Below are positions 19,912 through 45,876 of a DNA stretch of 64,000 nt, one piece after another (position 1 is the first letter of the stretch; each line of letters begins with the position of its first letter). Below the pieces are notes generated by a model, which was not told the origin of the DNA, made no database searches, and saw only the letters and a list, made by a program, of their open reading frames with translations. The DNA lies in assembly GCA_964641355.1 (NCBI GenBank), contig CAZXND010000002.1, forward strand, positions 143,112 to 207,111, written 5' to 3'. The position numbers and the translations under genes were made by a program. This stretch comes from an uncultured Gammaproteobacteria bacterium (GTDB lineage: Bacteria; Patescibacteriota; Microgenomatia; Levybacterales; GWA1-39-11).

Positions 19912-19953
19912 TTATGTTAATATCCGATATAATTGAATTATAGTTAAATCCTC

Positions 19954-23372: not shown

Positions 23373-25086
23373 TTACTTCAATTTTTTCAAGATACCCTTT
23401 TTCAACTAGTTTCTTTGCTACTTCTTCCACAACGTCTTTACGAATGTATGTTTTTGCATCTAAATCTAGCTTATTCTCAACGCTGATAGGTAATCTAGAG
23501 TGATATGTGAAACTTCCATTTCTATAATTTAATAAATTTGTGTAATGTTTGTCGAGATAAGATTGAAAAAATGACGTATAACTTTCAACCTTCGTGCCAA
23601 GAATAAAGAAATTTTTGTCAAAAACTACAATTTTAGGCTTAGTCTTTTGTAGATCACTAATCAACTTGTCTTGAAGTCGTTTTGATTTTCCTATACCAGG
23701 GATCAATATCTGAATACCAGAGGCTGGTCTTGCGTTAGTATAAAAAAGTTCTTCAAATTCAAAGGGACCAATCCAAACATAATCTTGTGAACTCAGAGCT
23801 GTATTAACTACTGGGGCAATACTTGGTCGATCATAAATCAAAGGTGCTTTACCCATATATTTTGCAAAATATTTATCAGAAAAGCTTTTAACAAGAAAAA
23901 TTAAACTCATCACCATGTACGCAAAAGATATTAAGAAAAGAGTTGAGAAAATCAACCTCTTACCATTTTTTCTTGTTAAATTTATCGATCGATATATTTC
24001 ATTCAAAGCAAAAAAGGAATTAAAGAAAGAAAGCAGTATATACACTGCTGATTGATAATCTGTTTCTTTTGAATTAAGCGGGTTACTTCTTGCATTTGCA
24101 TAAACCAAAGTCAAAAAAATAAAAAATACTAAGGAATATTTCCTTCTAAAAAGCAGGTATAACACTAAAGAAAAGTTTAAAGTTGCCATAGTTGTGTTAA
24201 GAGGAAAATCAAATGAAAAGTTTCTTATACCGAGTGCTAAAATATAGAAACTCCCCATAAAATTATTCAGAATAACGATTGCGTATCTAACCGGATTGAT
24301 AAAAGTAGAATCAGATGAACGTGGGTAATTATAAATATAGTATTTCGCATTAAAAACTATATTTTGATATAAATAATCTCCAATACTACCCGTTAGCGTA
24401 AGATACAGAGCAAAAATCACATGAGGCAGTAAAATATAAAAAATAGGTTTAAGGTTGCTTTTTTTAAAGTTTAGATCTTTTACTTTCGAATAAAAGAGAA
24501 ACATAGTGTAGAAAATGGTTATTAGATATAAATAAAGGTAGGTCAAGGAAGAATAAACTCCTAAAGCAGATAATATTGAGATAAAAAGAATATCAGAATT
24601 TGTTAAATTTTTAGAAGAAAATGCTTTTAGAATTATCAATCCGTAAACTGCCAAGAAACAAAATGCTGCAATATTGTCTGCAAGAAGCATATGCGACCAA
24701 TAGTAAGTGGACGCAAGACCGATGAATCCGATCAACCAAGGATAGAAAGATATGTTTTTAGAGTAACTTTTTCGAATATAAAAGTAGGGGACTACGAGCA
24801 TCAGTAGTACAATTAGCGAGTAAAATAATCTAAAGACTACAAAAGATTGACCACTAAACAATTCAACTAAAGCAGCAATTAAATAAGGAACAGGGCCATG
24901 ATGAGTAAAATAACCACTATAAAGAAAATGACCATGCAAGGTAAACCATCCTCCAAGAATATTGTCGAATTCGTCAGGATAAGTTTCATGAAAGGCGTTT
25001 GAAACAAACAATATAATTAGTATAATTCCTGACAAAAATTGCCAAGACCACAATGATTTGATAGTTTTTAAGAAATAACTTCTCAT
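23365..25086 (-). CDS. large polytopic membrane protein, possible additional GT-C-type glycosyltransferase
   Basis: 573 aa. HETYPDEFDNILGGWFTLHGHFLYSGYFTHHGP loop after TM1, about 12 TM helices, C-terminal soluble domain. Confidence 0.4.
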   Translation of the reverse strand: MRSYFLKTIKSLWSWQFLSGIILIILFVSNAFHETYPDEFDNILGGWFTLHGHFLYSGYFTHHGPVPYLIAALVELFSGQSFVVFRLFYSLIVLLMLVVPYFYIRKSYSKNISFYPWLIGFIGLASTYYWSHMLLADNIAAFCFLAVYGLIILKAFSSKNLTNSDILFISILSALGVYSSLTYLYLYLITIFYTMFLFYSKVKDLNFKKSNLKPIFYILLPHVIFALYLTLTGSIGDYLYQNIVFNAKYYIYNYPRSSDSTFINPVRYAIVILNNFMGSFYILALGIRNFSFDFPLNTTMATLNFSLVLYLLFRRKYSLVFFIFLTLVYANARSNPLNSKETDYQSAVYILLSFFNSFFALNEIYRSINLTRKNGKRLIFSTLFLISFAYMVMSLIFLVKSFSDKYFAKYMGKAPLIYDRPSIAPVVNTALSSQDYVWIGPFEFEELFYTNARPASGIQILIPGIGKSKRLQDKLISDLQKTKPKIVVFDKNFFILGTKVESYTSFFQSYLDKHYTNLLNYRNGSFTYHSRLPISVENKLDLDAKTYIRKDVVEEVAKKLVEKGYLEKIEVNE

Positions 25087-25095
25087 CTATAAAGA

Positions 25096-26769
25096 TTACA
25101 ACGATAGTATATCAAATACAGGTGAATTATCCTTCCTATTAATTTTTTTTAAAGTGTTAAATCTCTTATCATTTTCTCGACAAAGACCACTATTAACATA
25201 AAGCACTCCTTGCTTACCTGAACTTACTGTATCATTACTTTTTAAAGGACACTCTTCTTGACTAAATTCAAACTTTCCGAAGTTTTCCCTATCATAATCC
25301 TTTATACTTTTCCTCTTTGTTTCTTCTAAATACTTTAACGGATCGTATCTATTGTAGAAAAGAAAAAAAATTGCAGGAGCCGACTCGCGATTTGTAATAA
25401 TAGATTTTTTATAAACAGGAAGAAGTCTCGAAACATTAGCAACAAGCTCTTTATAACCTTGGTGTCTATACCATGGCCTATATATTGGCCCGTGTACATA
25501 GTACTCATGTAAGTAGAAAAGAAATTGATATGTAAAAATAATAAATATCCCAACAATTATAAATTTGTAATAATCTTTATGTCTTATTAAGGAAATAAAT
25601 TTTAATAACCCCACTGACATAATCATCGATAATGCAGGAAAAATAAAAAGAGTTCTTTGTAAATTTGGCACATCGTCTTGACTAAGAGAACTGCCAATAG
25701 GAGATAACAAAACCCAAAAGATAATAAAAACCCTAGACCAAGAAAATTTTTTAAATAAAGTAAATGTACCCAAAATAACTAAAATAAAATCAGTTATATA
25801 CAAGAGTCCCGTAAGTGGCACTCTGTATCTGTCCGGATAACCTTTATCAGAAAAAAGGAATCTATATGAAAAATGATCAGAATAATTTTCTAAAAACTTA
25901 AAAGATAGTCCAATAAGCTTATTGTGGAAAACTCTAGTATTAAAATTATCTATATTTTCAACTCCATCTTCTCTTATCTTTTCTTCTAAAATCAACCCCA
26001 CTTCATCGTTATTTGTAATACTTAAACTTCTTGCTCTGATAGATAAAGTTGGAGATAACAAAGAAATTACAACGGGAGCTATGATCGCAAATAAGTATAT
26101 AAGCTTTATTGTATTGTTCTTAAAATTATATTTCCCGTCAAAAGTTAAAAACATAACAGGAATTAGTAAAGGTAGAAAAGCGTAAGGAGCAATATAAAAG
26201 GACAAACTGGCTTCAATAGATAGAAGTGAAAGAATTATAAATATTATTTTTTTTCTATCTAACCATTCAAAAAAAAGATAAACACCAAAAGAAATAAAGA
26301 AAACAACTGGAGTAATAGAGCTAGCTGTTCTGGCAAGATTTATACTCCAAGGTGAAACTGAAATAAAAATTGCAGTGAGCAATCCAAAAATATAAGAGTT
26401 AAATCCAAAAAGCTCTTTGAACTTACCGTGTTTATAAATTTTAACTGCCAATAAATAACTACTAATGATCGTCAATGATCCAAAAAGAGCAGAGGCAAAT
26501 CTTACAGAATATTCACTTAAACCAAATAAGTAAATAAAGGGGACAGATAGATATGAGTAACCCGCAGGAGTATATAAGAAAGATCTTAAGTGAAGAGGGA
26601 AAAATGCTCCAGTCATATCCCTACCTGTTTTGAGCAAAGAATAAGAGTTATAACCAAAAAAAGCTTCATCCCTATGGAAACCGTTTGGATAACTATCTAA
26701 TTTATAGAATCTTAAAAATAAAGCTAAAATAAAAATAACAAATAGTACCCAATAATATTTTTTAATCAT
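25096..26769 (-). CDS. GT-C family A (PMT/ArnT-like) paralog 5
   Basis: FHRDEAFFGYNSYSLLKTGRDMTG; VSPWSINLARTASS; VPNLQRTLFIFP. The ORF track extends to 26814, overlapping the upstream methyltransferase by 22 bp. Internal Met (MIKKYYWV..., about 26769) chosen as the likelier start. Confidence 0.6.
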   Translation of the reverse strand: MIKKYYWVLFVIFILALFLRFYKLDSYPNGFHRDEAFFGYNSYSLLKTGRDMTGAFFPLHLRSFLYTPAGYSYLSVPFIYLFGLSEYSVRFASALFGSLTIISSYLLAVKIYKHGKFKELFGFNSYIFGLLTAIFISVSPWSINLARTASSITPVVFFISFGVYLFFEWLDRKKIIFIILSLLSIEASLSFYIAPYAFLPLLIPVMFLTFDGKYNFKNNTIKLIYLFAIIAPVVISLLSPTLSIRARSLSITNNDEVGLILEEKIREDGVENIDNFNTRVFHNKLIGLSFKFLENYSDHFSYRFLFSDKGYPDRYRVPLTGLLYITDFILVILGTFTLFKKFSWSRVFIIFWVLLSPIGSSLSQDDVPNLQRTLFIFPALSMIMSVGLLKFISLIRHKDYYKFIIVGIFIIFTYQFLFYLHEYYVHGPIYRPWYRHQGYKELVANVSRLLPVYKKSIITNRESAPAIFFLFYNRYDPLKYLEETKRKSIKDYDRENFGKFEFSQEECPLKSNDTVSSGKQGVLYVNSGLCRENDKRFNTLKKINRKDNSPVFDILSL

Positions 26770-26792
26770 TTTATAAAACCTAAGAAAGTATA

Positions 26793-27398
26793 CTATTTTC
26801 TTGCAATAACCCAAATATTGAATCCTAATTCAAAATACCCATATTCTATTCTTCTCTTTTCTAATCCTGCATTTTTTAGAAAATTAATTATTTTTTTTGG
26901 ATTCGAAAGAGGTTTATGGTCCTCTATTTCGACTTTGCTTATTAAGCCTATTTTGGAAAATAACCATAGTATAGGAACAGACCAGGGGGCAGGAGTAGTA
27001 ATAATAAGAACACCATCCTTTTTCAGTACTCTTTTAATTTCTGACAACACATTTTTTAATTTCATTGGATGAATGTGCTCAAAGACTGCGAGCATAGTCA
27101 CTACATCAAAATAATTATTTCTGTATGGAAGAGAGTTTTTTTCTATATCGATTTTTTTTAGCTTTATTCCTTTGATTTTAAAGCCTACTTCGTTGATATA
27201 ACCATCTACTCCGTGTTTTTCGACAAAACCGCAGGAAGCAAGGAAATAAGGAAATGATCCACAACCTATATCAAGCACCCTATCACCTCTTTTTTTAACC
27301 TTTGATTGAAGCAATAAATTCGCAGTTGAAGCTCTTTTCTTAGCAAGAAATATCTCTAAAAAACCGAAACCCCGAGTAGCGCTATGTTTTTGATGCAT
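26793..27398 (-). CDS. class I SAM-dependent methyltransferase
   Basis: VLDIGCGSFPY glycine-rich SAM motif, FDVVTMLAVFEHI, VLKKDGVLIITTP. Confidence 0.7.
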   Translation of the reverse strand: MHQKHSATRGFGFLEIFLAKKRASTANLLLQSKVKKRGDRVLDIGCGSFPYFLASCGFVEKHGVDGYINEVGFKIKGIKLKKIDIEKNSLPYRNNYFDVVTMLAVFEHIHPMKLKNVLSEIKRVLKKDGVLIITTPAPWSVPILWLFSKIGLISKVEIEDHKPLSNPKKIINFLKNAGLEKRRIEYGYFELGFNIWVIARK

Positions 27399-27418
27399 AA
27401 AGTAACGGGCAGATAAAG

Positions 27419-28645
27419 TTATCCATTTTTTTCATCCGGCCAAAAATACGCCGTGACAAAAATCATAGATAAATATCCCATGTGACTATTATTGAAATAT
27501 CGCGAAAGATACCAATAAACAAAAAGAAATATACCATAAACTATAATTAACCTTTGAGTTGTATTATGCTTTATTTGATAGCGAATCAATATAAAAACGA
27601 GAGGGATGCATATTATAAGTTGCAACAAAATAAATGGGAAATACATTTTAAGATCACGTATTAAACCGAATTCATTTAATAACATCCCTACACCATAGCC
27701 AGAAATCGGATAACTGTGTGTTCCTGAACCTGAGAGATAAAAAACAGTACTATCAAGAAAAGCATTAATATCCCAAAACATAAAAGGTAGATTAATTAAA
27801 GTAAAAATTATTAAAAATGGTAATAGAACAAATAATGTTTTTTTAATATTTCTTTTTTTAAGATAAATGTAGGTTAAATAAAATGGAAATATTGGCCAAG
27901 TAGATTGTTTTATAGCAAAGGCTAATCCCATAAAGACTCCTGACCAACTCAATCTTTTCTCTGTTAAAAGAAGTAATGAAAAGAACAAAAAAGCATACAT
28001 GAACATATCTGATCTACCTTCAAGAATATAAGGAAGCATTACGGGATTTAAAGCAAGAAGAGTAATAAATTGTCTTTTTTCTTCATTATTTTTTTTAATG
28101 CTCCAAGCCATTAAGAGTGTACTGAGAAATAATAAATAGAGTGGAACTCTAGCGTCAAAAAAACCGAAAAAGAAGTTACTACTAAAATAGAATGGGATGG
28201 CAAATAAAAGATAAAATGGCTCCATCACAAAGTGGTATAATGCAGGGTTTGTTTCTGTATCAGAATAATGCCAGGCCTCAAGTGGAGTTCCAAAGTATGT
28301 TTCTTTATATGGATTTTTACCGTGAATTACATATCGAATCGCTGCCTCCTGCTGCAAAATAATATCATGCACCCCATATATCGGCGCAGTTCTATGTCTA
28401 ACAATAACAGAAGAGATAAAACCACTTGCTATAACCAAGACAATAATCACCAATAATAAATAGCTTTTTATCCTGTCGTAATATTTTTCATTCATTTTAA
28501 ACAAATCAATGACTATATAGGAGATCAGAAGAGAGAAGATTAACGTGAACAACCAAAATGGAGTATTTTCCCAAGAAAGTCTATATTGGGTTATAAAAAA
28601 TATAACAAGTGGCAACAATAAAACAGTAGATAATTTAAGCTTCAT
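27419..28645 (-). CDS. polytopic membrane protein, family D-like (NPY...EGRSDMFMY...IKQ)
   Basis: 408 aa. HGKNPYKETYFGTPLEAWHY and EGRSDMFMYAFLFF...FAIKQ parallel the NPY / HNDIVMM / IK[YF] blocks of 10291..11400 and 56976..58145. Confidence 0.45.
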   Translation of the reverse strand: MKLKLSTVLLLPLVIFFITQYRLSWENTPFWLFTLIFSLLISYIVIDLFKMNEKYYDRIKSYLLLVIIVLVIASGFISSVIVRHRTAPIYGVHDIILQQEAAIRYVIHGKNPYKETYFGTPLEAWHYSDTETNPALYHFVMEPFYLLFAIPFYFSSNFFFGFFDARVPLYLLFLSTLLMAWSIKKNNEEKRQFITLLALNPVMLPYILEGRSDMFMYAFLFFSLLLLTEKRLSWSGVFMGLAFAIKQSTWPIFPFYLTYIYLKKRNIKKTLFVLLPFLIIFTLINLPFMFWDINAFLDSTVFYLSGSGTHSYPISGYGVGMLLNEFGLIRDLKMYFPFILLQLIICIPLVFILIRYQIKHNTTQRLIIVYGIFLFVYWYLSRYFNNSHMGYLSMIFVTAYFWPDEKNG

Positions 28646-28651
28646 TTAAAT

Positions 28652-30295
28652 TTACTTTTTAACACTCAATTCATTAATAATATAAGCTTGAGTACTATCT
28701 TCCCTTACGATATCTCCAACCTTAACAACATCCTCTGTCCCACAATTAGGAGAATCTACAATCAAAATCTTCTCTCCCTTTATTACACCCACTGAAGAAA
28801 TCTTTTTTTTAGGACAATCATCTGAAACAAAATAATATTTTCCAATATTAAAGTCATTTTTTAGCTTTCCCCTAGAAAAAGAGGGTATTTTAGTTTGTCG
28901 ATTGTAATAAAAATAGTAAATTGGAAGATCTTCATAGTTTGATATTATAATCTTTGAATACTCAGCCTCTTTTCGCTTTAATAGTGAAAAAAGTTTTTCG
29001 TTTCCATCATTCCTGGAATAAGAAATAAAAGAAGGTGAATGAACAAAATATTGGTGAAGAAAGTAGACAAGATTTAAAATTAAACCTAAAAGTAAAATCG
29101 TAATCAAAGTTTTCTTGAATGGATAACTTCTCTTAACCATATAAAATAATCCAAACCCTTCAATTATTTGAAACGCTGGAATCATGAAAATCGCCCTTTG
29201 TATATTAGGGCTATCTTCAAGCGTAAGAGAGGCGGCTACTGGAGCAGAAAAAAGCCAAATCAGAATCATAAAGGAATATTTATCTCTTCTTCGTAATAAT
29301 ACATAAAATCCTAAAAGCAGTAAGGGCGCTTCAAAATAGTAAAAAAGCCCCATATCAGGGATTACATATCGATTAGGAAGACCGCCTTTTATATAAAGAA
29401 ATTGAGTTGAGAAGTAACTTAGATATTGATCTACCACTTCTTTTGTAAAAAGCACCACCTTATTGTGGAATATTCGTGCAGTTAGAATATTTCCCTGATC
29501 AACATCTGAGAGAACTTTTGTTCTCGATATTATGTCTCTGTTGGAAAAAACTGAAGTTTGAGAAAATCTTCCTGTTCCAAACTTGGTAAAAGATAATGAG
29601 ATAGTTAAAAAAACAAAAAATACGGTTATAAAAAATAGGTTTTTATTTTTTTTGAAAACCAATTTAATCTTGTGTTTGTCATAAGACTCAAGGTTAAAAA
29701 ATAAAAACCAGAAAAGTAGCAAAGGAACAAATAATCTAGGGGTATGGTAGAAAAAATAAGAAAGAGAAAGTAATAAGATTGATATTAAGAAGTAAACTCT
29801 TTTGTTCTTTTGCAAATTCAGCAGTAAAAAATTTATACCAAGTAAAATAAGAAAGATAGCAACTATAGACTCAGAGGTGGCCCTACTTGCAACAATATGC
29901 CAAGGCGAAATAGCCAAAAGCAGAGCTGAAGATAAAGACGCAACCTTATTCTTACTTATTAAATAAGTGAGAAAGTAAACCAAAAAAATAGATAACGAAG
30001 ATATGAATGCTACAGGAAATCGTATTGCAAAGTTACCAAGACCAAATATTAACGTTGATAACCCAGTCAAATAAAAAATTCCTGCTGGCCTATAATCTCC
30101 AAACCTATTTATATATATAGGAAGATACTCTCCAAAAATGTTTTTTCCGGTAGTAATTATCTGATATCCTTGATAGCCAACATTAACCTCATCAAGCTGA
30201 ACTCCATTTGGAATCTTAGATAAATCATAGAATCTTAAAACTAAAGCAAAAATAAATATTAATACGAGAATCCAATTATTTTTAAGAAAATCCAT
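28652..30295 (-). CDS. GT-C family A (PMT/ArnT-like) paralog 6
   Basis: VQLDEVNVGYQGYQIITTGKNIFGE; ISPWHIVASRATSE; SPNIQRAIFMIP. Confidence 0.65.
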   Translation of the reverse strand: MDFLKNNWILVLIFIFALVLRFYDLSKIPNGVQLDEVNVGYQGYQIITTGKNIFGEYLPIYINRFGDYRPAGIFYLTGLSTLIFGLGNFAIRFPVAFISSLSIFLVYFLTYLISKNKVASLSSALLLAISPWHIVASRATSESIVAIFLILLGINFLLLNLQKNKRVYFLISILLLSLSYFFYHTPRLFVPLLLFWFLFFNLESYDKHKIKLVFKKNKNLFFITVFFVFLTISLSFTKFGTGRFSQTSVFSNRDIISRTKVLSDVDQGNILTARIFHNKVVLFTKEVVDQYLSYFSTQFLYIKGGLPNRYVIPDMGLFYYFEAPLLLLGFYVLLRRRDKYSFMILIWLFSAPVAASLTLEDSPNIQRAIFMIPAFQIIEGFGLFYMVKRSYPFKKTLITILLLGLILNLVYFLHQYFVHSPSFISYSRNDGNEKLFSLLKRKEAEYSKIIISNYEDLPIYYFYYNRQTKIPSFSRGKLKNDFNIGKYYFVSDDCPKKKISSVGVIKGEKILIVDSPNCGTEDVVKVGDIVREDSTQAYIINELSVKK

Positions 30296-30297
30296 AG

Positions 30298-32712
30298 CTA
30301 AAACAATTTAAATTTTATCGGTTTTATATTTAAAAATGCAAGAATCACTAATAGTAATACAGAAACAAAAGACACAACAGCTCCGATTTTAAAAGTTAAC
30401 GGGTCATAAATGAACACAACCTTACTTTCTCCTTTAGGGACCACTACAGATCTAAAAGTATAATCAGCTCTATAAATCTTACTATTTACCCCATTAATAT
30501 AAGCTCTCCATCCTGGAAAATAGTTATCCGATATAAAAAGGAAACCACTACCGTCTGTATATAATTGTATTTCTATTTTATTGGGGGTGTAGCTTATCTT
30601 TTTTATCTCACCCTTTTTAAAAATTTTATCGTCAATTTCTGGAGTCTCTTCCAAGATCACAGTGTCTTTAAGATTGATTTTAGAATTAAAAATATTGTTT
30701 AGAATTGATTGTTGCTCCTTTTTAACAAGATATTTCTTTGCAATAAACACTCGAGACATGGAATTCAAATTTTCGTAAATATTATATTTTCCATCGCTCC
30801 AAATCTTTTTAAAGGATTTGGTAGTGTTAGATTCTTCACTTGAAAGCAAAAAATATCTAACTCCAACAAGATTCAAAAATCTAGATCGGTAAACGTTGTT
30901 ATCATATTCACTTAGACTTTTGAGAAAAGGGATTTGAGCATCTGCCCTTGGAATTTCTTTATCATATTTACCTTTTAGAGATAGGGAGTTTACTAATTCT
31001 CCATACCTACTTATATAAATTGAGTCGTAACCTTCTGGTGAATAAATACCATAATAGGAAAGTAAATTTTTTTCAATATATCCATTACCGATGGATAAAA
31101 CCCTATTAATACCACTTAGTTCTTTCACTTTAGATATAACTGGTGTCGTAGGAAATACAAATTTTCTTTGTGAAAAATATAGATATTTATTTGCCATATA
31201 CAGAGAGGCCAAGATAGATATTCCTAGAAGTGCAAAAAGTGAAAATACTCTATATCTTTTAATACCTCCAACAATAAATATAGTCGATGAAACAATTAGT
31301 ATAAAAATTTGGAAAATGATATTTTTAAATGAAACACTTATATTCAAGATGGCATTTTTTATCCCGACAAACCTTAATAGATCAAAGCTTACAATAGCCC
31401 CTATTAGAAGATAGATCACGACTAAAAATACTATTATTATTAATATTTTTTTAATATTAAATTTATTGAGATATTCCCTAACTCCATAAGCACTTATTAT
31501 CGCGAGTGAAAAAGTAGATAAATAAAAGATTCTTGAAGGAATAATTTTTGAAATAAAGGGAATGTTTAGATGATAAAGTATTAGCCACGTGGTAGGAAGA
31601 GAAAAACCTAAAGACATGGTTAACACGAACAAAAATTTAAAAAACTTCTCCCTTGAATCCTTCGATGGACTAATAAACGCAAAAAAAACAAATAATAAAG
31701 CCGGAATTCCTACAAACATTACCTTTTCATAATAAAATCCTTCACCAAAATAGTTATAAACACCAGGGTTACCGAACACGTCAGGAACAAAAAATGTAGC
31801 TAAATCCTTAGCTTTTAAGAGATATGATTCAAAAAGATATCTCGCATCTGTGGATCCTCTTGGAGCATATAAAAGTGCCTCAAATGAAGGAAGAAGATGA
31901 ATTGCAGAAACCAAAATAGAAAAAATAAATCCAAAACAAATAACCAAAAATCTTTTATATTTTTTTGTTTTGAATAGAAGAAAAACGGAGTAAATAAACG
32001 AGACAGAATAAAGATATAAACTCATTTGAAACCAACCTGAAAGAACTGAAAAACAAAGTGATAAAATGAGAATCAATAAATTAATCTTCCCAAGCCTTAA
32101 ATAGATTTTCTCGATTGCAAAAAGACTTAAAGGTAAAAACAACGCTGAATAATAACTCATCAATGATTCTTCCCACCAGACAATCGAGAAGGAAGATAGA
32201 CCAAAAACCACAGACCCAAAAATCGAAGACTTACGATTAAAGCCTATCTGTTTTAGATATAAGTATGTAAAAGAAAGTCCCAAAATAGGACCAACTATTA
32301 TAATCAATGACCATGCATCAATTAATGGGAATATCAAAAATAAAAAACTTAAAGGATGAAAAATCGCAGATTGATAGGTAGCCAAATGTGTATTACCAGA
32401 AAAACTATAAGGATTCCAAAGTGGTACTTCTCCCATTTTTATTTCATCAGTTGTTATTTTCCTATATGGGTAAAATATTCTTAAATTATCGAATCCAATA
32501 GGTTTATTTGGTGGACCGTTAGGAAACTCTGGATCTTTATATGTCGTCCATGGTTGATAATTAGCAACAAGAAGATTAGACGGAAAAGGAACAAGATTTT
32601 TAAAAAAGTAGTCTCTAAAAATAAAAACAGATAAAAAAATAAAGAATAAAAAGACAAGAAAGTCCTTGTTTTTATAATTTAATTTACGAACCTGTATTTT
32701 AATAATGTCCAT
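30298..32712 (-). CDS. YfhO-family membrane glycosyltransferase (GT-C), paralog 1
   Basis: 804 aa. VPLWNPYSFSGNTHLATYQSAIFHPLSF, FVPDVFGNPGVYNYFG, C-terminal NYFPGWRAYINGV...FRSVVVPKGESKV plus a terminal TM. 34-bp overlap with the upstream CsbB-like GT2. Confidence 0.7.
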   Translation of the reverse strand: MDIIKIQVRKLNYKNKDFLVFLFFIFLSVFIFRDYFFKNLVPFPSNLLVANYQPWTTYKDPEFPNGPPNKPIGFDNLRIFYPYRKITTDEIKMGEVPLWNPYSFSGNTHLATYQSAIFHPLSFLFLIFPLIDAWSLIIIVGPILGLSFTYLYLKQIGFNRKSSIFGSVVFGLSSFSIVWWEESLMSYYSALFLPLSLFAIEKIYLRLGKINLLILILSLCFSVLSGWFQMSLYLYSVSFIYSVFLLFKTKKYKRFLVICFGFIFSILVSAIHLLPSFEALLYAPRGSTDARYLFESYLLKAKDLATFFVPDVFGNPGVYNYFGEGFYYEKVMFVGIPALLFVFFAFISPSKDSREKFFKFLFVLTMSLGFSLPTTWLILYHLNIPFISKIIPSRIFYLSTFSLAIISAYGVREYLNKFNIKKILIIIVFLVVIYLLIGAIVSFDLLRFVGIKNAILNISVSFKNIIFQIFILIVSSTIFIVGGIKRYRVFSLFALLGISILASLYMANKYLYFSQRKFVFPTTPVISKVKELSGINRVLSIGNGYIEKNLLSYYGIYSPEGYDSIYISRYGELVNSLSLKGKYDKEIPRADAQIPFLKSLSEYDNNVYRSRFLNLVGVRYFLLSSEESNTTKSFKKIWSDGKYNIYENLNSMSRVFIAKKYLVKKEQQSILNNIFNSKINLKDTVILEETPEIDDKIFKKGEIKKISYTPNKIEIQLYTDGSGFLFISDNYFPGWRAYINGVNSKIYRADYTFRSVVVPKGESKVVFIYDPLTFKIGAVVSFVSVLLLVILAFLNIKPIKFKLF

Positions 32713-33395
32713 AAAGCAAGAAACCCGTCTCTGAATGTATGTATCTTCTTACCCTCATCATAACCTCTAGGAGTTGTTTTTATGTCAATCTCCTTAATTT
32801 TAATTCCCTTTTTGAGTATCTTTGCTGTTATTTCAGGTTCAAAATCAAACGACCTTGCCTTCAAATGAACACTCTTTATCACCATAGAGTCAAATGCCTT
32901 ATAACATGTTTCCATGTCAGAAATATAACTACCGTATATGATAGTTGTTATGTAGCTTAAAAATTTGTTACCAAAAAAGTGAAGCAAGAGCGGTGTTCGA
33001 TTTTTTCCAAAAAAAACTGGCTTTACTTTTAATCTTGTGCCATAAACAACTTTATTTTTTTTCTCTAGAATTGGCTTTATTATTTTTGGAATATCGTTAG
33101 GGTTATATTCAAGATCTGCATCTTGAATTATTATAATATCACCCGATGCTTGTTTAAATCCTGAATTTACAGCCGACCCTTTTCCCATATTCTTCTTATG
33201 AGTAATAACCTTAATTGACTTATTTTTTGATGAAATTTTTAGAAGTATATTTGGTGTTTTATCTGATGAACCATCATTTACGACAATTATTTCTTTTTTG
33301 ACCTTAGGAATAGTTAAATAGATTATCTTTTTCAAGATAATTGGAAGTGTCTTCTCTTCATTAAAAACAGGTATTATTATGGATAACTTCATCAA
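32679..33395 (-). CDS. GT2, CsbB/GtrB/DPM1-like polyprenyl-phosphate sugar synthase
   Basis: LSIIIPVFNEEKTL...IIVVNDGSSDKT...KNMGKGSAVNSGF...IIIQDADLEYNP. Immediately upstream of, and overlapping, a YfhO-like gene (csbB-yfhO-like arrangement). Confidence 0.65.
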   Translation of the reverse strand: MMKLSIIIPVFNEEKTLPIILKKIIYLTIPKVKKEIIVVNDGSSDKTPNILLKISSKNKSIKVITHKKNMGKGSAVNSGFKQASGDIIIIQDADLEYNPNDIPKIIKPILEKKNKVVYGTRLKVKPVFFGKNRTPLLLHFFGNKFLSYITTIIYGSYISDMETCYKAFDSMVIKSVHLKARSFDFEPEITAKILKKGIKIKEIDIKTTPRGYDEGKKIHTFRDGFLALWTLLKYRFVN

Positions 33396-34318
33396 GGGTA
33401 GTCTGAAAAAATTTGACGATCAGTTCTTTTATAAAGTTTTTTTTGCTTAAATCGTTTAAAGATTATATCAGGAATTTTGAACAGCGCAAGCAAAAATCCA
33501 AGATAAAATGCAAAATCCAGTTTGAATAATGCTCTGATAAAATAGTATGGCAAAAATAAAATATGTGAAATTATTTTTTCAAAATCCGAAATGTTTTTCC
33601 AAATAAATATGAATTGATTTCTAAAAGAAATCACCTTTATTCTAAAGTCTTGATTGTTTTTTCTTATAGACCCTTCGTCATGTCTATGAATTACTCTACT
33701 TTTCGGATTAAATTTTAAGTTGTAACCAGATTTAACTGCTCTAAAAGAAATGTCTATATCTTCCCAGTAAAAAGGATTATATAAAGAATCAAAACCTCCA
33801 AGAGCAATAAAAATACTTCTTTTAACAATACTACTTCCACCAGAAATCCAAAATGTATCTAACTCGTCTACGTCTCCCCTCTTATGAAAAAACATTCCGT
33901 TTTTCCAATATGCTAATCCTCTTCCACGAAATACAACCCCCCCTTTTTCTTCACTTTCATCTAGACAACCTACGCCAAATAGTTTTGGATCTTCTTTAAA
34001 ATCATTTAATATTGGATCTAAAAAATTTTGATAGGGTTTGACATCTGTATTTAAAAGAACTACATATTCCCCCGTTGCTACTTCAACCCCCTTATTTACG
34101 GCTGAAGAAAATCCTTCATTTTTTTTATTTTTTACTAATATCACTGAGTAATTTTCGACAAACTTCTCTAATCTATCTAACTCGATCTTACTAGAACCAT
34201 CATCAACTACTATTACTTCATTTTCACCATAATTTTTAAGAGAGGATATAACATGAGGTAAATTATTCTTAATGAGATTAAAACCATTATAATTAGGTAT
34301 GACAACACTTATTTTCAT
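33392..34318 (-). CDS. family 2 glycosyltransferase
   Basis: KISVVIPNYNG...VIVVDDGSS...NEGFSSAVNKG...LLNTDV; 308 aa; paralogous to 42592..43491. Confidence 0.7.
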   Translation of the reverse strand: MKISVVIPNYNGFNLIKNNLPHVISSLKNYGENEVIVVDDGSSKIELDRLEKFVENYSVILVKNKKNEGFSSAVNKGVEVATGEYVVLLNTDVKPYQNFLDPILNDFKEDPKLFGVGCLDESEEKGGVVFRGRGLAYWKNGMFFHKRGDVDELDTFWISGGSSIVKRSIFIALGGFDSLYNPFYWEDIDISFRAVKSGYNLKFNPKSRVIHRHDEGSIRKNNQDFRIKVISFRNQFIFIWKNISDFEKIISHILFLPYYFIRALFKLDFAFYLGFLLALFKIPDIIFKRFKQKKLYKRTDRQIFSDYP

Positions 34319-34320
34319 CT

Positions 34321-36531
34321 TTAAAACAACTTCATATCAAAAACAATTAGATGCTTTCCTTCTGGCACAATTACACCTCTAAAAGTTAAATCAATTCTGT
34401 ACACATCAACCTCTTTTCCGTCAATCTTAGCAATCCAATTTGGATAATATACATCGGTAAGAACTAAAAAACCTTTACCAACATTTTGTGTTTCAATTGT
34501 CATACTATTTTCTTTAGTTTCAAGAATTCTTACTTTTCCCTTTTTAAAGTTTCCCCCAGGTGAATTCTGACTAAAAGCTAGTTTCGATAAATCAGAGGAA
34601 AGCATCTCTGACATCATTTGTTTTTCATCTTCTACTTTTTTAACTTCTTCAACAAAAAATGCACGATCAATAACATTTAAATTTTCGTAAACGATTGTCT
34701 GTCCTTCCCTGAAAACCTCTTTAAATTTTGATTGCTTAATTTCTGATAGTGAAAGAACATACTTAACATTTAATAAATCTAATAATTTAGAACTTACGTT
34801 ATGAGGAGTAATAATTCTATTATATCCATAGGGTGGGTCAATATCTGAGGAATTTCTCTCAAGAGCTGCTATATATTTTGCGTAAGATAAAAGATAAAGA
34901 GGGTCATATCCTTCAATAGATTCTAATTTGTAAATTACTGAGAAATTAGGAGGAAAAATCCTTCTATCCGTTGAGGCAATTCTAAAAAGACCGTTTTTAC
35001 TTTTACTTTGCAAAAAATCTATTATTTTAGTCTTCGGATAGAGATATTCTTTTCTTTCAAATGGTTCAAACTTATATGCGAACCTGAAAAGGTCAAACAC
35101 GAGAACAAATAAAATTAAGAACATTAAATATTTTTTGTACTTTTTTAGAAACATGATTACCAATATCACTACAAAAAGCGTTATTGTTAATAGGGTGGGA
35201 AAAACAAGATTTCTTCTTGATACCAAGATATTTACTTGATCAAATGATAATGTATTGCTTAAATTAAACAACCAAAGAAGAGATAGTAAAAACATAATTA
35301 GTCCCAAAACTAGAAACACTTTTTTGCTCGGCTTTTCAATAAACTCATTAAAGCCATAGGCTGATAAAACTGATAAAGAAAAACAAATAACAAAAAGAAG
35401 TCTTGTAGGTTGAGCAGTGGCTATAAAAGGAAGATTTAACCTAAATGGAAGACTAGACAATGGACTATCAATTGAGAAAACTAGAGACATGACGACTACT
35501 ATAGCAAAAAATAATATATTCCTTTTTACAAAAAATAGAGAATATGCTGCAAAAATAATTCCCGCTATTCCGATGTATCCAATTAGTTCTGCATAGTTCC
35601 ACGCTCCAAAATAATTCATCGTTGCAGGATTACCAAAAAAATCTGGAACTATAAATTGCACTAAGTGCTTTAAAGGAATAAACCAGCCTTCTACTTTCCA
35701 ATTTAAATCGTACGCTCTTGAAGAAAGTAAAATAAATCTTAAAGTTGAAAACCATTGAATTAACGTTGCAAGCACAAAAAACAAAATTACCAAGAAAACC
35801 GATACAATGGCTTTTCTATTCCCTGACTGAATAAACTTAAAAATAACATACGCTAGGAAAAGTGCGAAAACGTAAAAAAAGATTTGTAGATGACCTGAAA
35901 GAAAAGAACTAACCAAACTAAAGGCTAAAATTAAAACCCATTTTTTTTCAAATCTTCCAAAGATTTTATCGACTGATAAAAGAATCAATGGTAACCAAAT
36001 CCCGGTATGTAAAACATTTCCCCACTCAAGCCAAGCAACTGAGAATCCAGAAAAGATAAAAGCTATTGCACCAAATGCCGAAGCTTTATGGTCAATCTTT
36101 AAGTTAGATAAATACAAGTACATGAATATTCCTCCTAAAATGAGTTGTAACAAAATAAATAATGTCCAAGATAAATGAAAGGGTTTAATAAAGAATAATA
36201 TGTTAAGAGGATAAAGTGCACCTGTTTGAAAGTTTGCAAGCAAAGGCTTTCCACCCATTTCGTAAGGATTCCACAAGGGTAATTGTCCTTTTGAAAAACT
36301 ATCGATCGCCAAATTCTTCCAAGGATAAATTTGTCTTACAGGATCCGTGATAAGGAAATTTTTGAATGGCACTCCCCTGGGAAACTCTTTTATGTAAAAG
36401 TCTCTGTAAGGATAGTACAATCCTACTATAGTATCTGATGGAATAGGTAATAATCCTTTTATGAAAAAAGGGTTAAAAAAAGCTACCACCAGCACACAAA
36501 TAAAAAAAACAAAATAATTTCCTAATTTCAT
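34321..36531 (-). CDS. YfhO-family membrane glycosyltransferase, paralog 2
   Basis: LPLWNPYEMGGKPLLANFQTGALYPLNILFF; IVPDFFGNPATMNYFG; C-terminal VYYPNWIAKIDGKEVDVYRIDLTFRGVIVPEGKH. Confidence 0.7.
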   Translation of the reverse strand: MKLGNYFVFFICVLVVAFFNPFFIKGLLPIPSDTIVGLYYPYRDFYIKEFPRGVPFKNFLITDPVRQIYPWKNLAIDSFSKGQLPLWNPYEMGGKPLLANFQTGALYPLNILFFIKPFHLSWTLFILLQLILGGIFMYLYLSNLKIDHKASAFGAIAFIFSGFSVAWLEWGNVLHTGIWLPLILLSVDKIFGRFEKKWVLILAFSLVSSFLSGHLQIFFYVFALFLAYVIFKFIQSGNRKAIVSVFLVILFFVLATLIQWFSTLRFILLSSRAYDLNWKVEGWFIPLKHLVQFIVPDFFGNPATMNYFGAWNYAELIGYIGIAGIIFAAYSLFFVKRNILFFAIVVVMSLVFSIDSPLSSLPFRLNLPFIATAQPTRLLFVICFSLSVLSAYGFNEFIEKPSKKVFLVLGLIMFLLSLLWLFNLSNTLSFDQVNILVSRRNLVFPTLLTITLFVVILVIMFLKKYKKYLMFLILFVLVFDLFRFAYKFEPFERKEYLYPKTKIIDFLQSKSKNGLFRIASTDRRIFPPNFSVIYKLESIEGYDPLYLLSYAKYIAALERNSSDIDPPYGYNRIITPHNVSSKLLDLLNVKYVLSLSEIKQSKFKEVFREGQTIVYENLNVIDRAFFVEEVKKVEDEKQMMSEMLSSDLSKLAFSQNSPGGNFKKGKVRILETKENSMTIETQNVGKGFLVLTDVYYPNWIAKIDGKEVDVYRIDLTFRGVIVPEGKHLIVFDMKLF

Positions 36532-37595
36532 CTCGAGATTATAAGCTTTTGTATTTGCTCACAAAAGTTTTCCTTGCTAAATTTCTCAGACTTTGTCACT
36601 GCTCTTTTTGACATTTTATTAAGCAGTTCTGTATTGTTCATTAGATGTAGAGTTTTTTCCTTCATCTCAATTAGAGTATTCCATAAAAATCCATCTAAAC
36701 CATTTTCAATAATTTCGCTTTGACCTCCAGCATTAATAACTACTGGTACTACTCCAGCCCCCATAGCTTCAACGGTGGAGATGCCAAAATGCTCTGCATT
36801 TTCTGGATGTGCATCTAAATTTTCTCCGACGCCAGTTGCATGCCAATATATTTTAGCTTCAGAATAAAGATTCCACAAATCTTGATTACTGGGATTAACG
36901 ATAATGTCTATCGGATAACCTAAGACCGTATCTTGAAGCTTTTTGACTTGATCGCCAAATTCTACCCTAGACCCCAAAACAAGTTTAAATCTCCACCCCT
37001 CAACTCCTTCATCAATCATCTTCTTAAATTCAGATATCATAACATCTTGCTTCTTGTATAGCTGACCATTTAAAGTGAAACCGATCCTACCCACACTAAG
37101 TATTGTCTTTTTCTTTCGCTTACTCTTATCTGCTTTAATCTCTACTGGAGGATATACCACAAGACTATCAACGCCAAATTTTTTGTCTATATATTTTTTT
37201 GTAAATTTTGAATTACAAATAATTTTCTTAATCCTAGTGAGCTTTATTTTTGTTTTAATGGAATTTCCAACCCACTCTACAGGAAACTGAAAATGGACGA
37301 TCAGCTTTTTAGATGGAATAAAAGGAAGACTACCATCGCTGAGAAAAAAAATTAAATCAAATTTATTCAATTCGCTAATTCTTTGTAAGGTGTTTTTTAC
37401 AGTTCCGAAAGGATTTTTATCAACTTTAACATTATTTAAGTCTATTGCGAATTTATTTTCTCCTTTGGAAAGAACTTCTGGATCATCCCAAAATAGGTGG
37501 ACGTCTTCGTGGGATAAGCAAGAAGCTAAAGTTAACATATACCTTTCTCCACCTTCCAAAACACCTAAGTATGGGTCGTAAATACCTATCTTCAT
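36528..37595 (-). CDS. family 4 glycosyltransferase (GT-B)
   Basis: EHFGISTVEAMGAGVVPVV E-x7-E motif; 355 aa. Confidence 0.65.
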   Translation of the reverse strand: MKIGIYDPYLGVLEGGERYMLTLASCLSHEDVHLFWDDPEVLSKGENKFAIDLNNVKVDKNPFGTVKNTLQRISELNKFDLIFFLSDGSLPFIPSKKLIVHFQFPVEWVGNSIKTKIKLTRIKKIICNSKFTKKYIDKKFGVDSLVVYPPVEIKADKSKRKKKTILSVGRIGFTLNGQLYKKQDVMISEFKKMIDEGVEGWRFKLVLGSRVEFGDQVKKLQDTVLGYPIDIIVNPSNQDLWNLYSEAKIYWHATGVGENLDAHPENAEHFGISTVEAMGAGVVPVVINAGGQSEIIENGLDGFLWNTLIEMKEKTLHLMNNTELLNKMSKRAVTKSEKFSKENFCEQIQKLIISR

Positions 37596-37652
37596 ACGTT
37601 TATTTTAACAACTATTGAATAGCAATAAAAGTTATGTTAAATTCAATAAGTT

Positions 37653-37877
37653 ATGAATCTTTCGCCAGATACAAATATCTTAATCTTCCTTCTACTAATT
37701 TGGTCAACAGGGGTAAAAGGTGTAGCTTTGTGGAGAGCAGCTAGATTAGACCAAAGAAATTGGTTTATAGTAATGCTTCTTGTTAATATTTTTGGGATTC
37801 TAGAGATAATATATTTATTTAAATTCGCAAAAAAGAAACTGACCCTCAAAGAACTTAGATCATGGTTCTCCAAATGA
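37653..37877 (+). CDS. small two-TM membrane protein (74 aa), unknown function
   Basis: ORF fills most of the only large intergenic gap (285 bp) in the cluster. Two clear hydrophobic helices flanking a WRAARLDQRNW loop. A competing minus-strand ORF (37643..37873) has no recognisable features. Confidence 0.4.
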   Translation: MNLSPDTNILIFLLLIWSTGVKGVALWRAARLDQRNWFIVMLLVNIFGILEIIYLFKFAKKKLTLKELRSWFSK

Positions 37878-37880
37878 TAT

Positions 37881-38615
37881 TTAGTTATTTTGTTTTTCCC
37901 AAAGTTTAGCGTAAGTAATAAACATTGAGAACGATTGATAAATTGACTCTATCATTCCTTTAGTACCATTCTTATAGCCTTTATCATTAAGATAAGAGCT
38001 AATGAAACCGGTCAATATTATTCTGCAAAATCTCAAAATGGTCATTCGAGGGTGTTTTGATTTAAGTCTTAATTCTGCTTCAAAATTTGACCAATCGTTT
38101 GTTTTATTAACCATCTGAAAAAGGTTGGAATGTGTAAAATGGTTTATAGGAGAACTAATCACCCCAAACTCTCCTTCTATTTTAGGCGTCTCATGAACAA
38201 GACCATACCATCCTATAAATTTTTTTCTTAAAAATAATCTTTGAACTTTATCAATAAGCCCCCAATCTTTTCCAAAATAGTAAGTTTTTCTTTGCAAATA
38301 ATATCCCGACATAACATCAGTTTTTGAAATAATCTCTTTGACTTCATTTTTAAAATCTTCTGTTAATTCTTCATCGGAATCTACATATAACACCCACTCA
38401 CCAGATGTTCTATCTATTCCATAATTTCTTTGATCTGAAAAATCAATAAATTTCTTTTCAACCATCCTAATATCAAATCCTTTAACAATTTTTTTTGTAT
38501 CATCATTCGAATCAGAGTCGATTACAAGCACTTCATCGCCAAACCCTTCAATACTTTTAAGAGTTCTTTTAATCGTGTCTTGAGAGTTCTTCGTTAAAAT
38601 GATTATTGAAAGCAT
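37881..38615 (-). CDS. family 2 glycosyltransferase
   Basis: LSIIILTKNSQDTI...VLVIDSDSNDDT...YVDSDEEL; same GT2 subfamily as 12876..13664 and 43497..44399. Confidence 0.7.
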   Translation of the reverse strand: MLSIIILTKNSQDTIKRTLKSIEGFGDEVLVIDSDSNDDTKKIVKGFDIRMVEKKFIDFSDQRNYGIDRTSGEWVLYVDSDEELTEDFKNEVKEIISKTDVMSGYYLQRKTYYFGKDWGLIDKVQRLFLRKKFIGWYGLVHETPKIEGEFGVISSPINHFTHSNLFQMVNKTNDWSNFEAELRLKSKHPRMTILRFCRIILTGFISSYLNDKGYKNGTKGMIESIYQSFSMFITYAKLWEKQNN

Positions 38616-38622
38616 AATTTAA

Positions 38623-42595: not shown

Positions 42596-43491
42596 CTATA
42601 ACTTCCTTTTCCAAACTTTCTTATGAAAAAATCTATTGCACCTACTCGCTGCCATTTCCTACCAGATATAATCAAACTAATTCCCTCTTTTATCAGAAAA
42701 AGCTTGCTTTTGATCGGTGCAAATTTAATTCCAAAAAGCAGTCTATTTCGAGTAATATAATAATCTTGAAGAGATGAACCAGAGCCACCAGAAGACGATG
42801 CATTACTATGCCAAATTATTGCACGAGGTACAAAAATAATTTTATAACCTAAATTTTTAAATCTCATTGATAAATCAGTATCTTCATAATAAAGAAAATA
42901 CTTTTCATCAAATAAGCCTACCCTTTTGAGTGCGCTTTTTTTTATTAACATGCAACATCCTGATGCAAAATCAGTTTCTCCACCACTGTATTGATCTATA
43001 TCAACTTCATCAACTCCTCTATGCTCGCCCATTACAGTGTTCCAATTCATTATTCCTCCTGCGTACCAAATAACTTTCCCTAATTGGTTTTTTTGGTATC
43101 GAGATTTATGGAATTCACTTCCTTCAGAAAAGTAAATCTTTGGAGAAGCAATCCCTGTATCTTCATTTTGAAATGATGAAAGAAGATAATTAATAGAGCT
43201 TGACTCCAAGATTGTGTCATTGTTAAGAACTAAAATATAATCCGCTTTATTTAAAATTTTTTTTATAATTAAATTATGCCCACTAGCAAAACCAAGATTT
43301 TTTTCGCTCTTTATAACTTCCAAATTCAAGGAATATTCCTGCTCTTTCAATTCAAATTCATCTGAAGCATTATCTAGAAGATAAACAAACAAGCTTACAT
43401 CTTTGTTAAGCTTGAGATTCTGAATAGAATCAAGACATTTTTTCGTAGCTAAAAGGCTATTATAATTTATTAATGAAATATATAAATTCAT
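42592..43491 (-). CDS. family 2 glycosyltransferase
   Basis: LYISLINYNS...YLLDNASDE...NLGFASGHN...VLNNDT; 299 aa. Confidence 0.65.
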   Translation of the reverse strand: MNLYISLINYNSLLATKKCLDSIQNLKLNKDVSLFVYLLDNASDEFELKEQEYSLNLEVIKSEKNLGFASGHNLIIKKILNKADYILVLNNDTILESSSINYLLSSFQNEDTGIASPKIYFSEGSEFHKSRYQKNQLGKVIWYAGGIMNWNTVMGEHRGVDEVDIDQYSGGETDFASGCCMLIKKSALKRVGLFDEKYFLYYEDTDLSMRFKNLGYKIIFVPRAIIWHSNASSSGGSGSSLQDYYITRNRLLFGIKFAPIKSKLFLIKEGISLIISGRKWQRVGAIDFFIRKFGKGSYS

Positions 43492-43496
43492 TTAAA

Positions 43497-45850: not shown

Positions 45851-45876
45851 GAATATCCAACGCTTAGTGTGTACCT

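Follow-up and report, generated by a model that had tools for sequence, protein, structure and literature searches.

The 64,000-nucleotide stretch of DNA analyzed here (the window; contig CAZXND010000002.1 of assembly GCA_964641355.1, positions 143,112 to 207,111, GTDB Levybacterales) encodes a glycosyltransferase family 2 (GT2) protein of 237 residues, GT2(237), whose gene overlaps that of a YfhO-family GT-C glycosyltransferase of 804 residues, YfhO(804). In sequence and predicted fold, GT2(237) is closest to the polyprenyl-phosphate glycosyltransferases (PfDPMS, GtrB, ArnC, AglJ), and its architecture is of the DPM1/GacI/PpgS type, not the CsbB/GtrB type. We consider it probable that GT2(237), as one conserved synthase of lipid-linked sugar, serves many of the approximately 23 GT-C-like enzymes of a 59-kb island, a variable set that includes YfhO(804), and not YfhO(804) alone. 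The two genes and their junction are as follows.

32679..33392, minus strand: GT2(237), 237 residues; predicted polyprenyl-phosphate sugar synthase without a transmembrane (TM) helix (DPM1/GacI type)
30298..32712, minus strand: YfhO(804), 804 residues; YfhO-family GT-C glycosyltransferase
32679..32712, minus strand: GT2(237)/YfhO(804) overlap, 34 bp; the YfhO start lies within the GT2 codons Ala-Leu-Trp

Results

Family and fold of GT2(237)

GT2(237) matches Pfam PF00535 with an E-value of 1.9e-36, and its best PDB sequence matches in a phmmer search are PfDPMS (E = 3e-18), ArnC (1.8e-17), and GtrB (6.5e-17). When a family profile built from 43 homologues was compared with the PDB, profile positions 1–232 aligned to native residues 1–226 of PfDPMS (E = 1.3e-25). 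The best-ranked polymerising GT2, chondroitin synthase, was matched over just the N-terminal half (profile E = 7e-20), none of the matched stretches passing the E-value cut-off individually; glucosyl-3-phosphoglycerate synthase (GpgS) followed at ~3e-12, also over the N-terminal half only. Among NCBIfam models the best matches are AglJ (4.5e-31, residues 4–234), ArnC (1e-23), and PgfS (3.5e-21), and PpgS matches residues 6–205 (1.1e-12). Since the scores for AglJ, ArnC, and PgfS are far below the equivalog cut-offs, GT2(237) is a relative and not an orthologue of these proteins.

The AlphaFold2 model of GT2(237) has a pLDDT of 86.7. The first 25 Foldseek matches of this model are exclusively chains of ArnC, GtrB, and PfDPMS, aligned over their full length with E-values of 5e-15 to 1e-10 and TMq values of 0.61–0.77 (0.69–0.77 for the ten best). 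The first match outside the polyprenyl-phosphate glycosyltransferases has an E-value of 8e-10; in Foldseek E-value, the first polymerising GT2 lies about five orders of magnitude behind PfDPMS, GtrB, and ArnC. GpgS superposes on the GT-A core (TMq 0.74, E = 2.4e-9). The first-pass annotation had placed the GT2 among lipid-phosphate sugar synthases, naming a closer kinship to polymerising GT2s as the finding that would speak against it; sequence, profile, and fold all uphold the original placement.

Homologues of GT2(237) are 60–78% identical across Levybacteria, and the closest named relatives of both GT2(237) and YfhO(804) belong to Candidatus Levybacteria/Levyibacteriota; the host is a Candidatus Levybacteria bacterium of the Microgenomates. 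The orthogroup is widespread: a profile scan of contigs with the GT2 alignment listed matches mostly from other phyla, at 39–51% identity, with one Levybacteria-like locus among them. Relatives from Candidatus Woesearchaeota (DPANN; loci L017, L026, and L031 in our numbering) are 48–51% identical to GT2(237). This equals or exceeds the identity of relatives from most bacterial phyla and may reflect gene sharing between the Candidate Phyla Radiation (CPR) and DPANN.

Functional residues and architecture

The best solved relative of GT2(237) is PfDPMS, a type III enzyme, for which the roles of E12, D39, D89/D91, R117, F177, R202, E206, and K208 have been described (PMC5526996). The residues correspond as follows.

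PfDPMS E12: GT2(237) E12, invariant in the family
PfDPMS D39: GT2(237) D40, invariant
PfDPMS D89ADLQH94: GT2(237) D91ADLEY96, invariant; differs from PfDPMS at two positions
PfDPMS R117: GT2(237) R120, invariant
PfDPMS R131 and S135 (interface helix 1): no one-to-one equivalent, aligned to L137 and G141; not conserved
PfDPMS F177: GT2(237) F182, invariant
PfDPMS K178: GT2(237) D183, replaced
PfDPMS R202, E206, and K208: GT2(237) R209, E213, and K215; R209 and K215 invariant, E213 conserved

Equivalents of E12, the DXD-type motif, R117, R202, and K208 are kept. In PfDPMS, R202 and K208 lock the acceptor loop together with E12, and R117, R131, and S135 are the acceptor-phosphate ligands of bona fide DPMS. 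The DXD-type metal site of the GT-A domain (D91-A-D93-L-E95-Y96) is invariant, but reads DADLEY in place of the DADLQH of PfDPMS, and the equivalents of R131, S135, and K178 are not kept. Around interface helix 1, the GT2(237) family instead retains R132, T133, P134, H138, G141, N142, and K143. Judged by this signature, GT2(237) is not a bona fide mannose synthase, and its sugar cannot be named. The lipid carrier in a bacterium would be polyprenyl, not dolichyl, phosphate.

The GT-A core is followed by an acceptor loop and two interface helices, which span residues 136–153 and 219–235 of the model. GT2(237) ends after the second of these, where the membrane domain of PfDPMS starts. Neither a TM helix nor a hydrophobic segment was found in its 237 residues, and the two C-terminal TM helices of the CsbB/GtrB/ArnC subtype are not present; the earlier description of the protein as CsbB-like is therefore wrong with respect to architecture. 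The roughly 120 closest homologues are all 233–250 residues long. Human DPM1 (type II, acting with DPM2/DPM3) also stops after the second interface helix, and PfDPMS cut at residue 230 is still targeted to the membrane with activity as in the wild type (PMC5526996). In the Streptococcus pyogenes GacI/GacJ/GacK/GacL and Mycobacterium tuberculosis PpgS/Rv3632 systems, the synthase likewise lacks TM helices and associates with the membrane unaided (10.1101/180810, PMC8035078). GacI is membrane-associated and active alone, its activity being merely stimulated by GacJ (10.1101/180810), and the two are an example of a TM-less GT-A enzyme aided by a small helper protein (PMC8035078).

Gene structure and the 34-bp overlap

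The longest open reading frame (ORF) of the GT2 gene, 32679..33395, begins with TTG, while an ATG at 33392 yields the 237-residue protein with the N-terminus MKLSIIIP. As the latter start matches all homologues and residue 1 of PfDPMS, 32679..33392 is the likelier gene. The ATG at 32712 is the sole in-frame ATG, GTG, or TTG ahead of the first hydrophobic helix of YfhO(804), so the 34-bp overlap is real. This start codon falls within the last 11 codons of GT2(237), where it is formed by Ala-Leu-Trp (GCT TTA TGG). The ORF coordinates, minus strand orientation, and overlap given for the two genes in the first-pass annotation are confirmed.

The same 34-bp overlap is found in genomes L006 and L011, with a 1-bp overlap (TAATG) instead in L012. 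In the window, however, it is not special, because 27 of the 41 same-strand junctions in the surrounding gene island overlap. With spacing computed from the longest ORFs, the median is −4 bp and six overlaps reach at least 20 bp. The translational coupling suggested previously is probable, the overlap being conserved in relatives. The overlap does not mark a dedicated pair, given the frequency of overlapping junctions and the near absence of YfhO(804) downstream of GT2(237) elsewhere (1 of 28 loci, see below). Promoter-like sites in 26000..41000 are fewer than in shuffled sequence and terminator-like sites are at chance level; both are uninformative about operon boundaries. A short reading frame in L007, MDFIKI followed by a stop, was considered as a deletion trace of the YfhO(804) start and rejected, because the conserved C-terminus of the GT2, read in the other frame, dictates these codons.

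YfhO(804)

YfhO(804) matches PF09586 over residues 113–700 and a C-terminal part (E = 6.6e-25; 88.1 bits against a cut-off of 28.5), in agreement with its earlier assignment as a YfhO-family GT-C enzyme. The predicted layout comprises approximately 10–12 TM helices, an extracytoplasmic β-rich C-terminal domain, and a terminal TM anchor, that is, a polytopic GT-C fold with a large extracytoplasmic domain. It is a distant member of the family, scoring 88 bits to Pfam YfhO and 25 bits to NCBIfam PgfM2; the NCBIfam matches to PgfM1/M2 (25–30 bits) are limited to the C-terminal domain. A PDB sequence search with YfhO(804) gave no meaningful match, the best being an antibody chain (E = 0.69). Orthologues of 36–59% identity occur in Levy-, Roizman-, Gottesman-, and Shapirobacteria, under the NCBI name "YfhO family protein".

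An acidic residue in the first extracytoplasmic loop is the usual catalytic feature of GT-C enzymes. D75, in the first outer loop, is invariant across 44 YfhO(804) orthologues and all four window paralogues, although no catalytic residues are established for YfhO itself (PMC5836110). Also conserved in these sets are PLWNPY (97–102), PDxFGNP (310–316), R285, R537, and a block in the C-terminal β-rich domain. In the model, D75 lies in a low-confidence loop (pLDDT <50 at residues 71–74). The former label "YfhO/GtlA-type GT-C" needs correction, since GtlA is a GT-A enzyme of the cytoplasm, GtlB is of GT-C type but bears no relation to YfhO, and Lmo1079 is the YfhO homologue of Listeria (PMC5836110).

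Conserved neighborhood of GT2(237)

The genes flanking the pair in the window are listed below.

33392..34318, minus strand: GT2(308), not DPM1-like; PF00535, E = 1.4e-24; commonest direct upstream neighbor of GT2(237)
34321..36531, minus strand: YfhO(736); PF09586, E = 3.9e-29; in the conserved block with GT2(237)
36528..37595, minus strand: GT4(355), cytoplasmic GT-B glycosyltransferase; PF00534, E = 1.3e-14; head of the conserved block
37653..37877, plus strand: DUF5652, 74 residues, two TM helices; PF18893, E = 1e-20; position beside the block fixed
27419..30295, minus strand: PMT_2(547) and GT87(408), GT-C-like genes after YfhO(804)

Neighbors were tallied in related genomes using our own ORF calls and BLAST against the window proteins, for the best 80 loci per scan. 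The 28 informative loci found via the GT2 carry homologues of at least 50% identity, and the upstream tally uses 26 informative loci. Every full-length Levybacteria and Roizmanbacteria locus examined contains the block GT4 – YfhO(736) – GT2(308) – GT2(237); further upstream follow DUF5652 on the opposite strand and then a YfhO(768)/GT2(244) pair. GT2(308) is directly upstream of GT2(237) in 16 of the 26 loci. In every Levybacteria locus with a flank long enough to include it, DUF5652 lies between the orthologues of GT2(244) and GT4(355); next to relatives of GT2(237) in other phyla it was not found. In size and topology it is reminiscent of DPM2/DPM3, with which the TM-less DPM1 partners in the membrane, though this is a resemblance only.

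Directly downstream of GT2(237), an orthologue of YfhO(804) is present in one of 28 loci (L006) and any YfhO in two, while 19 have a polytopic protein that is not Wzx. This slot holds at least eight kinds of gene, among them PMT_2-like genes (L001, L015, and L104), GT87 (L007, L101, and L102), and an unassigned protein of 9–14 TM helices (L003, L004, L095, and L100). The pair L006 and L007, from sequencing runs with neighboring accession numbers, have GT2 homologues 73% and 75% identical to GT2(237). L006 carries YfhO(807) between the GT2 and GT87 genes and L007 does not, the DNA being otherwise collinear; the window adds a PMT_2 gene at this position. In loci mostly from other phyla, a large polytopic protein is encoded within three genes of the GT2(237) relative in 26 of 64 cases.

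Seen from the YfhO(804) orthologues in seven other genomes, the GT2(237) orthologue is adjacent in four, one of them in reversed order (L176), and one gene away in a further one; of the remaining two, one has another DPM1-like GT2 two genes away (L175) and one has no GT2 nearby (L014). The relation is therefore asymmetric: YfhO(804) tends to adjoin GT2(237), but GT2(237) mostly has other neighbors. Within the block, GT2(237) also shows the strongest conservation, with identities to L006, L011, and L012 of 73, 57, and 60%, compared with 59, 50, and 47% for YfhO(804).

Some features of individual loci were noted in passing. Between DUF5652 and the orthologue of GT2(244), L006 (2711..3451) and L007 (2705..3451) carry an F420_ligase-like gene (PF01996) on the opposite strand that is absent from the window. 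L015 (CAZQSX010000006.1) shows the Levybacteria gene order in full, at 65% identity, and L037 has the 5′ gene order of the window; both are labeled "uncultured Gammaproteobacteria", and these labels look wrong.

Flippase and acceptor genes

No GtrA/GtcA-family match was found among the ORFs of the 64-kb window, that is, no flippase of the small kind with 3–4 TM helices, and the earlier statement that no GtcA-like flippase adjoins the pair is correct. A GtrA-like neighbor of GT2(237) orthologues is practically never seen in other phyla either, a small protein with at least three TM helices occurring within three genes in 1 of 64 loci. This absence carries little weight, because in model systems the flippase gene is unlinked to the transferase genes, as for Bacillus subtilis gtcA, and the flippase can be of Wzx type, as for GacK (PMC8035078). 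Two of the four DPM1-like GT2 genes of the window abut Wzx-like genes. No DUF2304 (GacJ/Rv3632) gene was found in the window.

Teichoic acid had been implied as the target of the pair. However, no teichoic-acid synthesis domain (TagF, LtaS, or LCP-type) was found among the 49 ORFs of the window. YfhO-type enzymes act on lipoteichoic and wall teichoic acid (PMC5836110, PMC8035078), but also in the glycosylation of adhesins by S. mutans Pgf (10.1101/2022.10.10.511621). Teichoic acid is unsupported as the acceptor here; a surface protein or a wall or membrane glycopolymer is possible.

The glycosylation island

GT2(237) and YfhO(804) lie within a large gene island, in which the window (approximately 30% G+C) also contains the three other DPM1-like GT2 genes.

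355..59028, minus strand: glycosylation island, 44 packed ORFs, with one ORF alone on the other strand
5396..6151, minus strand: GT2(251), DPM1-like paralogue; adjoins a Wzx-like gene at 6216..7535
45877..46617, minus strand: GT2(246), DPM1-like; 28-bp overlap with the upstream PTPS_related(563), followed by a Wzx-like gene at 44396..45850
58138..59028, minus strand: GT2(296), DPM1-like paralogue; head of the island

The summed ORF length in the island is 99.7% of its span, with overlaps counted twice. Assignment by Pfam and BLAST clustering yields approximately 23 polytopic GT-C-like genes: four YfhO, seven PMT_2, four PTPS_related, one GT87, four that cluster with those families, and three of no known family. 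With clustered members counted, there are ten PMT_2-like and five PTPS_related-like genes. The rest comprises 10 GT2, three GT4, two Wzx-like genes, three epimerase/dehydratases, one aminotransferase, and one methyltransferase. Taken as a whole, the island is more striking than the GT2/YfhO pair, and we found no account of YfhO or GT-C arrays in CPR in the literature searched.

The YfhO paralogues at 34321, 38623, and 51484 and the DPM1-like GT2s at 5396, 45877, and 58138 are correctly placed in the first-pass annotation. The four YfhO paralogues are about 30% identical to one another. The three GT2s are of the same type as GT2(237), with 27–33% identity over nearly the full length, and the remaining six GT2s of the window are not DPM1-like. 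The suggestion that these genes form further neat donor/transferase pairs does not hold: four DPM1-like GT2s face approximately 23 GT-C-like genes, the partner of YfhO(768) is a GT2 of another kind, and YfhO(782) is three genes from GT2(296).

The YfhO(768)/GT2(244) pair (37881..40929, minus strand) is itself conserved, YfhO(768) always being followed by GT2(244). The best NCBIfam match of GT2(244) is the N-terminal region of the SunS-family peptide S-glycosyltransferases, and it is related to GT2(262) and GT2(300). This pair does not fit a model with a DPM1-like donor synthase.

Both gene orders that abut Wzx-like genes are on the minus strand: PTPS_related(563), GT2(246), and Wzx(484) at 44396..48281, and Wzx(439) and GT2(251) at 5396..7535. 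In both L113 and L116, the place after a PTPS_related(563)-like gene, which GT2(246) occupies in the window, is taken by a GT2(237)-like gene (55% identity); L113 then continues with a Wzx(484)-like gene. Taken as longest ORFs, 48278..49939 and 49818..51509 (minus strand) overlap by 122 bp, the start of the downstream gene probably being further in; the ORF at 48278..49939 has a PTPS_related match and a match to the YfhO C-terminal domain. The proteins encoded at 10291..11400 and 56976..58145 (minus strand) are related, with 369 and 389 residues and 8–9 TM helices, and match no Pfam family even at E = 1; the latter gene is overlapped by 8 bp by the upstream GT2(296). A relaxed Pfam scan of the polytopic ORFs at 10291, 23365, and 56976 gave no match.

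Discussion

A scheme of donor synthesis followed by GT-C transfer is reasonable for this locus, because GT2(237) is of the lipid-phosphate type and its neighbor belongs to the YfhO family of GT-C enzymes. GT2(237) would act as a peripheral enzyme at the cytoplasmic face of the membrane, with DADLEY as its putative metal site and the two interface helices in place of TM anchors, and would move one sugar from a nucleotide sugar onto polyprenyl phosphate. A flippase, for which the two Wzx-like genes of the island are candidates, would carry the lipid-linked sugar across the membrane. At the outer face, GT-C enzymes including YfhO(804) and YfhO(736) would use it as the donor for their acceptors. 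YfhO(804) is predicted to be co-transcribed with GT2(237) and is probably translationally coupled to it. GT2(237) would then be a conserved hub with fixed companions upstream (GT4, YfhO(736), and GT2(308)), while the slot downstream would gain and lose GT-C genes.

Similar arrangements are known from several systems. In CsbB-YfhO-GtcA of B. subtilis and S. aureus and Lmo2550-Lmo1079-GtcA of Listeria, a GT2 synthase gene also lies directly upstream of a PF09586 GT-C gene and, as here, the flippase is not encoded beside them (PMC5836110, PMC8035078). The common logic is a cytoplasmic undecaprenyl phosphate (C55-P)-sugar synthase followed by extracytoplasmic GT-C transfer, which for our locus is a prediction. 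In contrast to the CsbB systems, GT2(237) has no C-terminal membrane anchor, the window has no teichoic-acid genes, and YfhO(804) is a distant YfhO; moreover, GT2(237) would be shared with a conserved second YfhO amid approximately 23 GT-C-like genes, in a CPR host. The Gac system also has a Wzx-type flippase candidate (GacK) and a GT-C enzyme that completes the transfer, and Wzx-type candidates are present here too. However, unlike the Gac and PpgS systems, the window has no DUF2304 gene, and the GT-C partner is YfhO-type here as opposed to the PMT_2-type GacL. Small membrane proteins are represented in the block by DUF5652 alone, a protein with two TM helices whose gene is on the other strand and for which no relation to GacJ is known. 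S. mutans Pgf (PgfS, PgfM1, PgfE, and PgfM2) combines one GT2 and two YfhO-like GT-C enzymes in one operon (10.1101/2022.10.10.511621), and PgfS and PgfM2 are among the NCBIfam matches found here. On the other hand, PgfS is membrane-anchored and GtrB-like, and no LPXTG adhesin gene lies beside the genes in this study. Sharing of components has precedents, both of one GT-A enzyme by two GT-C enzymes (GttA with GtlB and GttB) and of one flippase by three systems (CflA; PMC8035078).

Several observations weigh against a shared polyprenyl-phosphate donor made by GT2(237). The acceptor-phosphate ligands R131 and S135 of PfDPMS have no equivalent and K178 is replaced by D183, so the acceptor site differs from that of bona fide Dol-P-Man synthases. 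In hydrophobic moment, the two predicted interface helices do not exceed the core helices. The flippase step has candidates only, in the two Wzx-like genes, and an unlinked GtrA-type gene may be an alternative. Because nearly every gene of the island overlaps or abuts the next, adjacency and overlap cannot show that YfhO(804) uses the donor of GT2(237) rather than that of the three other DPM1-like GT2s, and the synteny tallies are tied to our ORF calls and to the best 80 loci of each scan.

Three other explanations were weighed. In one, GT2(237) is not a polyprenyl-phosphate glycosyltransferase at all, and extends a lipid-pyrophosphate-linked glycan for the Wzx-dependent pathway encoded in the island, or adds sugar to a small molecule in the manner of GpgS-type enzymes. 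The missing TM helix, the superposition of the GT-A core on GpgS, and the loss of S135 and R131 are compatible with this, as are the two Wzx-like genes, three GT4 genes, and other GT2s, by which a classical oligosaccharide pathway coexists in the island. We nevertheless regard it as very unlikely, given that sequence and profile scores favor polyprenyl-phosphate glycosyltransferases by at least ten orders of magnitude (1.3e-25 against ~3e-12 for GpgS) and that the match spans the acceptor loop and the second interface helix, R209, E213, and K215 being kept. In addition, lipid-phosphate hexose transferases account for all of the best NCBIfam matches, and active TM-less members of this class are known.

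The other two explanations differ in how YfhO(804) is related to GT2(237). If the two formed a dedicated pair of the CsbB/YfhO type, GT2(237) would make the donor for YfhO(804) only, the overlap would enforce equal amounts, and the sugar would be placed on teichoic acid. The gene order is that of B. subtilis csbB-yfhO (PMC5836110), an overlap is conserved in three genomes, and GT2(237) adjoins four of the seven YfhO(804) orthologues elsewhere. Yet GT2(237) is highly conserved in 27 of 28 loci where YfhO(804) does not adjoin it, the otherwise collinear DNA of L007 has no YfhO(804) in that place, and most junctions of the island are overlaps; the 64-kb window has no TagF, LtaS, or LCP-type gene, and the GT2 has no CsbB/GtrB anchor. 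Such a pair is quite unlikely on these grounds. Conversely, the adjacency might be positional only, with GT2(237) serving the YfhO(736) block and YfhO(804) being a cassette in a hot spot of gene gain that draws its donor from, for example, GT2(246), GT2(251), or GT2(296). The constancy of the upstream block beside a downstream slot with at least eight gene kinds fits this idea, as do the YfhO(804) orthologues of L175 and L014, the former two genes from another DPM1-like GT2 and the latter with none near. But YfhO(804) orthologues are adjacent to GT2(237) in four of seven genomes and within one gene in five, and the reversed order in L176 is hard to explain by a single insertion site, making a purely positional relation unlikely. 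A shared donor from GT2(237), used by YfhO(804) among others, is the explanation we prefer.

It is tempting to speculate further that the island is a hub-and-spoke locus for diversification of surface glycans, in which a few conserved TM-less synthases, GT2(237) foremost, feed more than 20 fast-turnover GT-C enzymes that are gained, lost, and exchanged in the slot directly after the hub, so that the coat differs from lineage to lineage. DUF5652 would possibly be a membrane partner in the manner of DPM2/DPM3 or GacJ. We put this forward tentatively, as a conjecture that is more doubtful than the shared donor itself.

In mechanism, the predicted system adds nothing new to known multi-component transmembrane glycosylation and would be an ordinary member of the two-step scheme. 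The analysis does provide a firmer annotation for a widespread orthogroup of ~237-residue proteins labeled only "glycosyltransferase family 2", and it identifies gene overlap as an unreliable signal of pairing in islands of this kind. As a small enzyme of the soluble type, GT2(237) is an obvious first target for heterologous biochemistry. To our knowledge, the surface of CPR/Patescibacteria cells has hardly been explored. Because life in this group is spent in attachment to other cells, surface glycans are likely to be central to their biology. An island of this size corresponds to approximately 8% of the complete Levyibacteriota genome CP066685.1 (762,565 bp), although the genome size of the present organism may differ. 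If the hub-and-spoke arrangement were true, it would provide an episymbiont with lineage-specific coats, for instance for host attachment or phage evasion.

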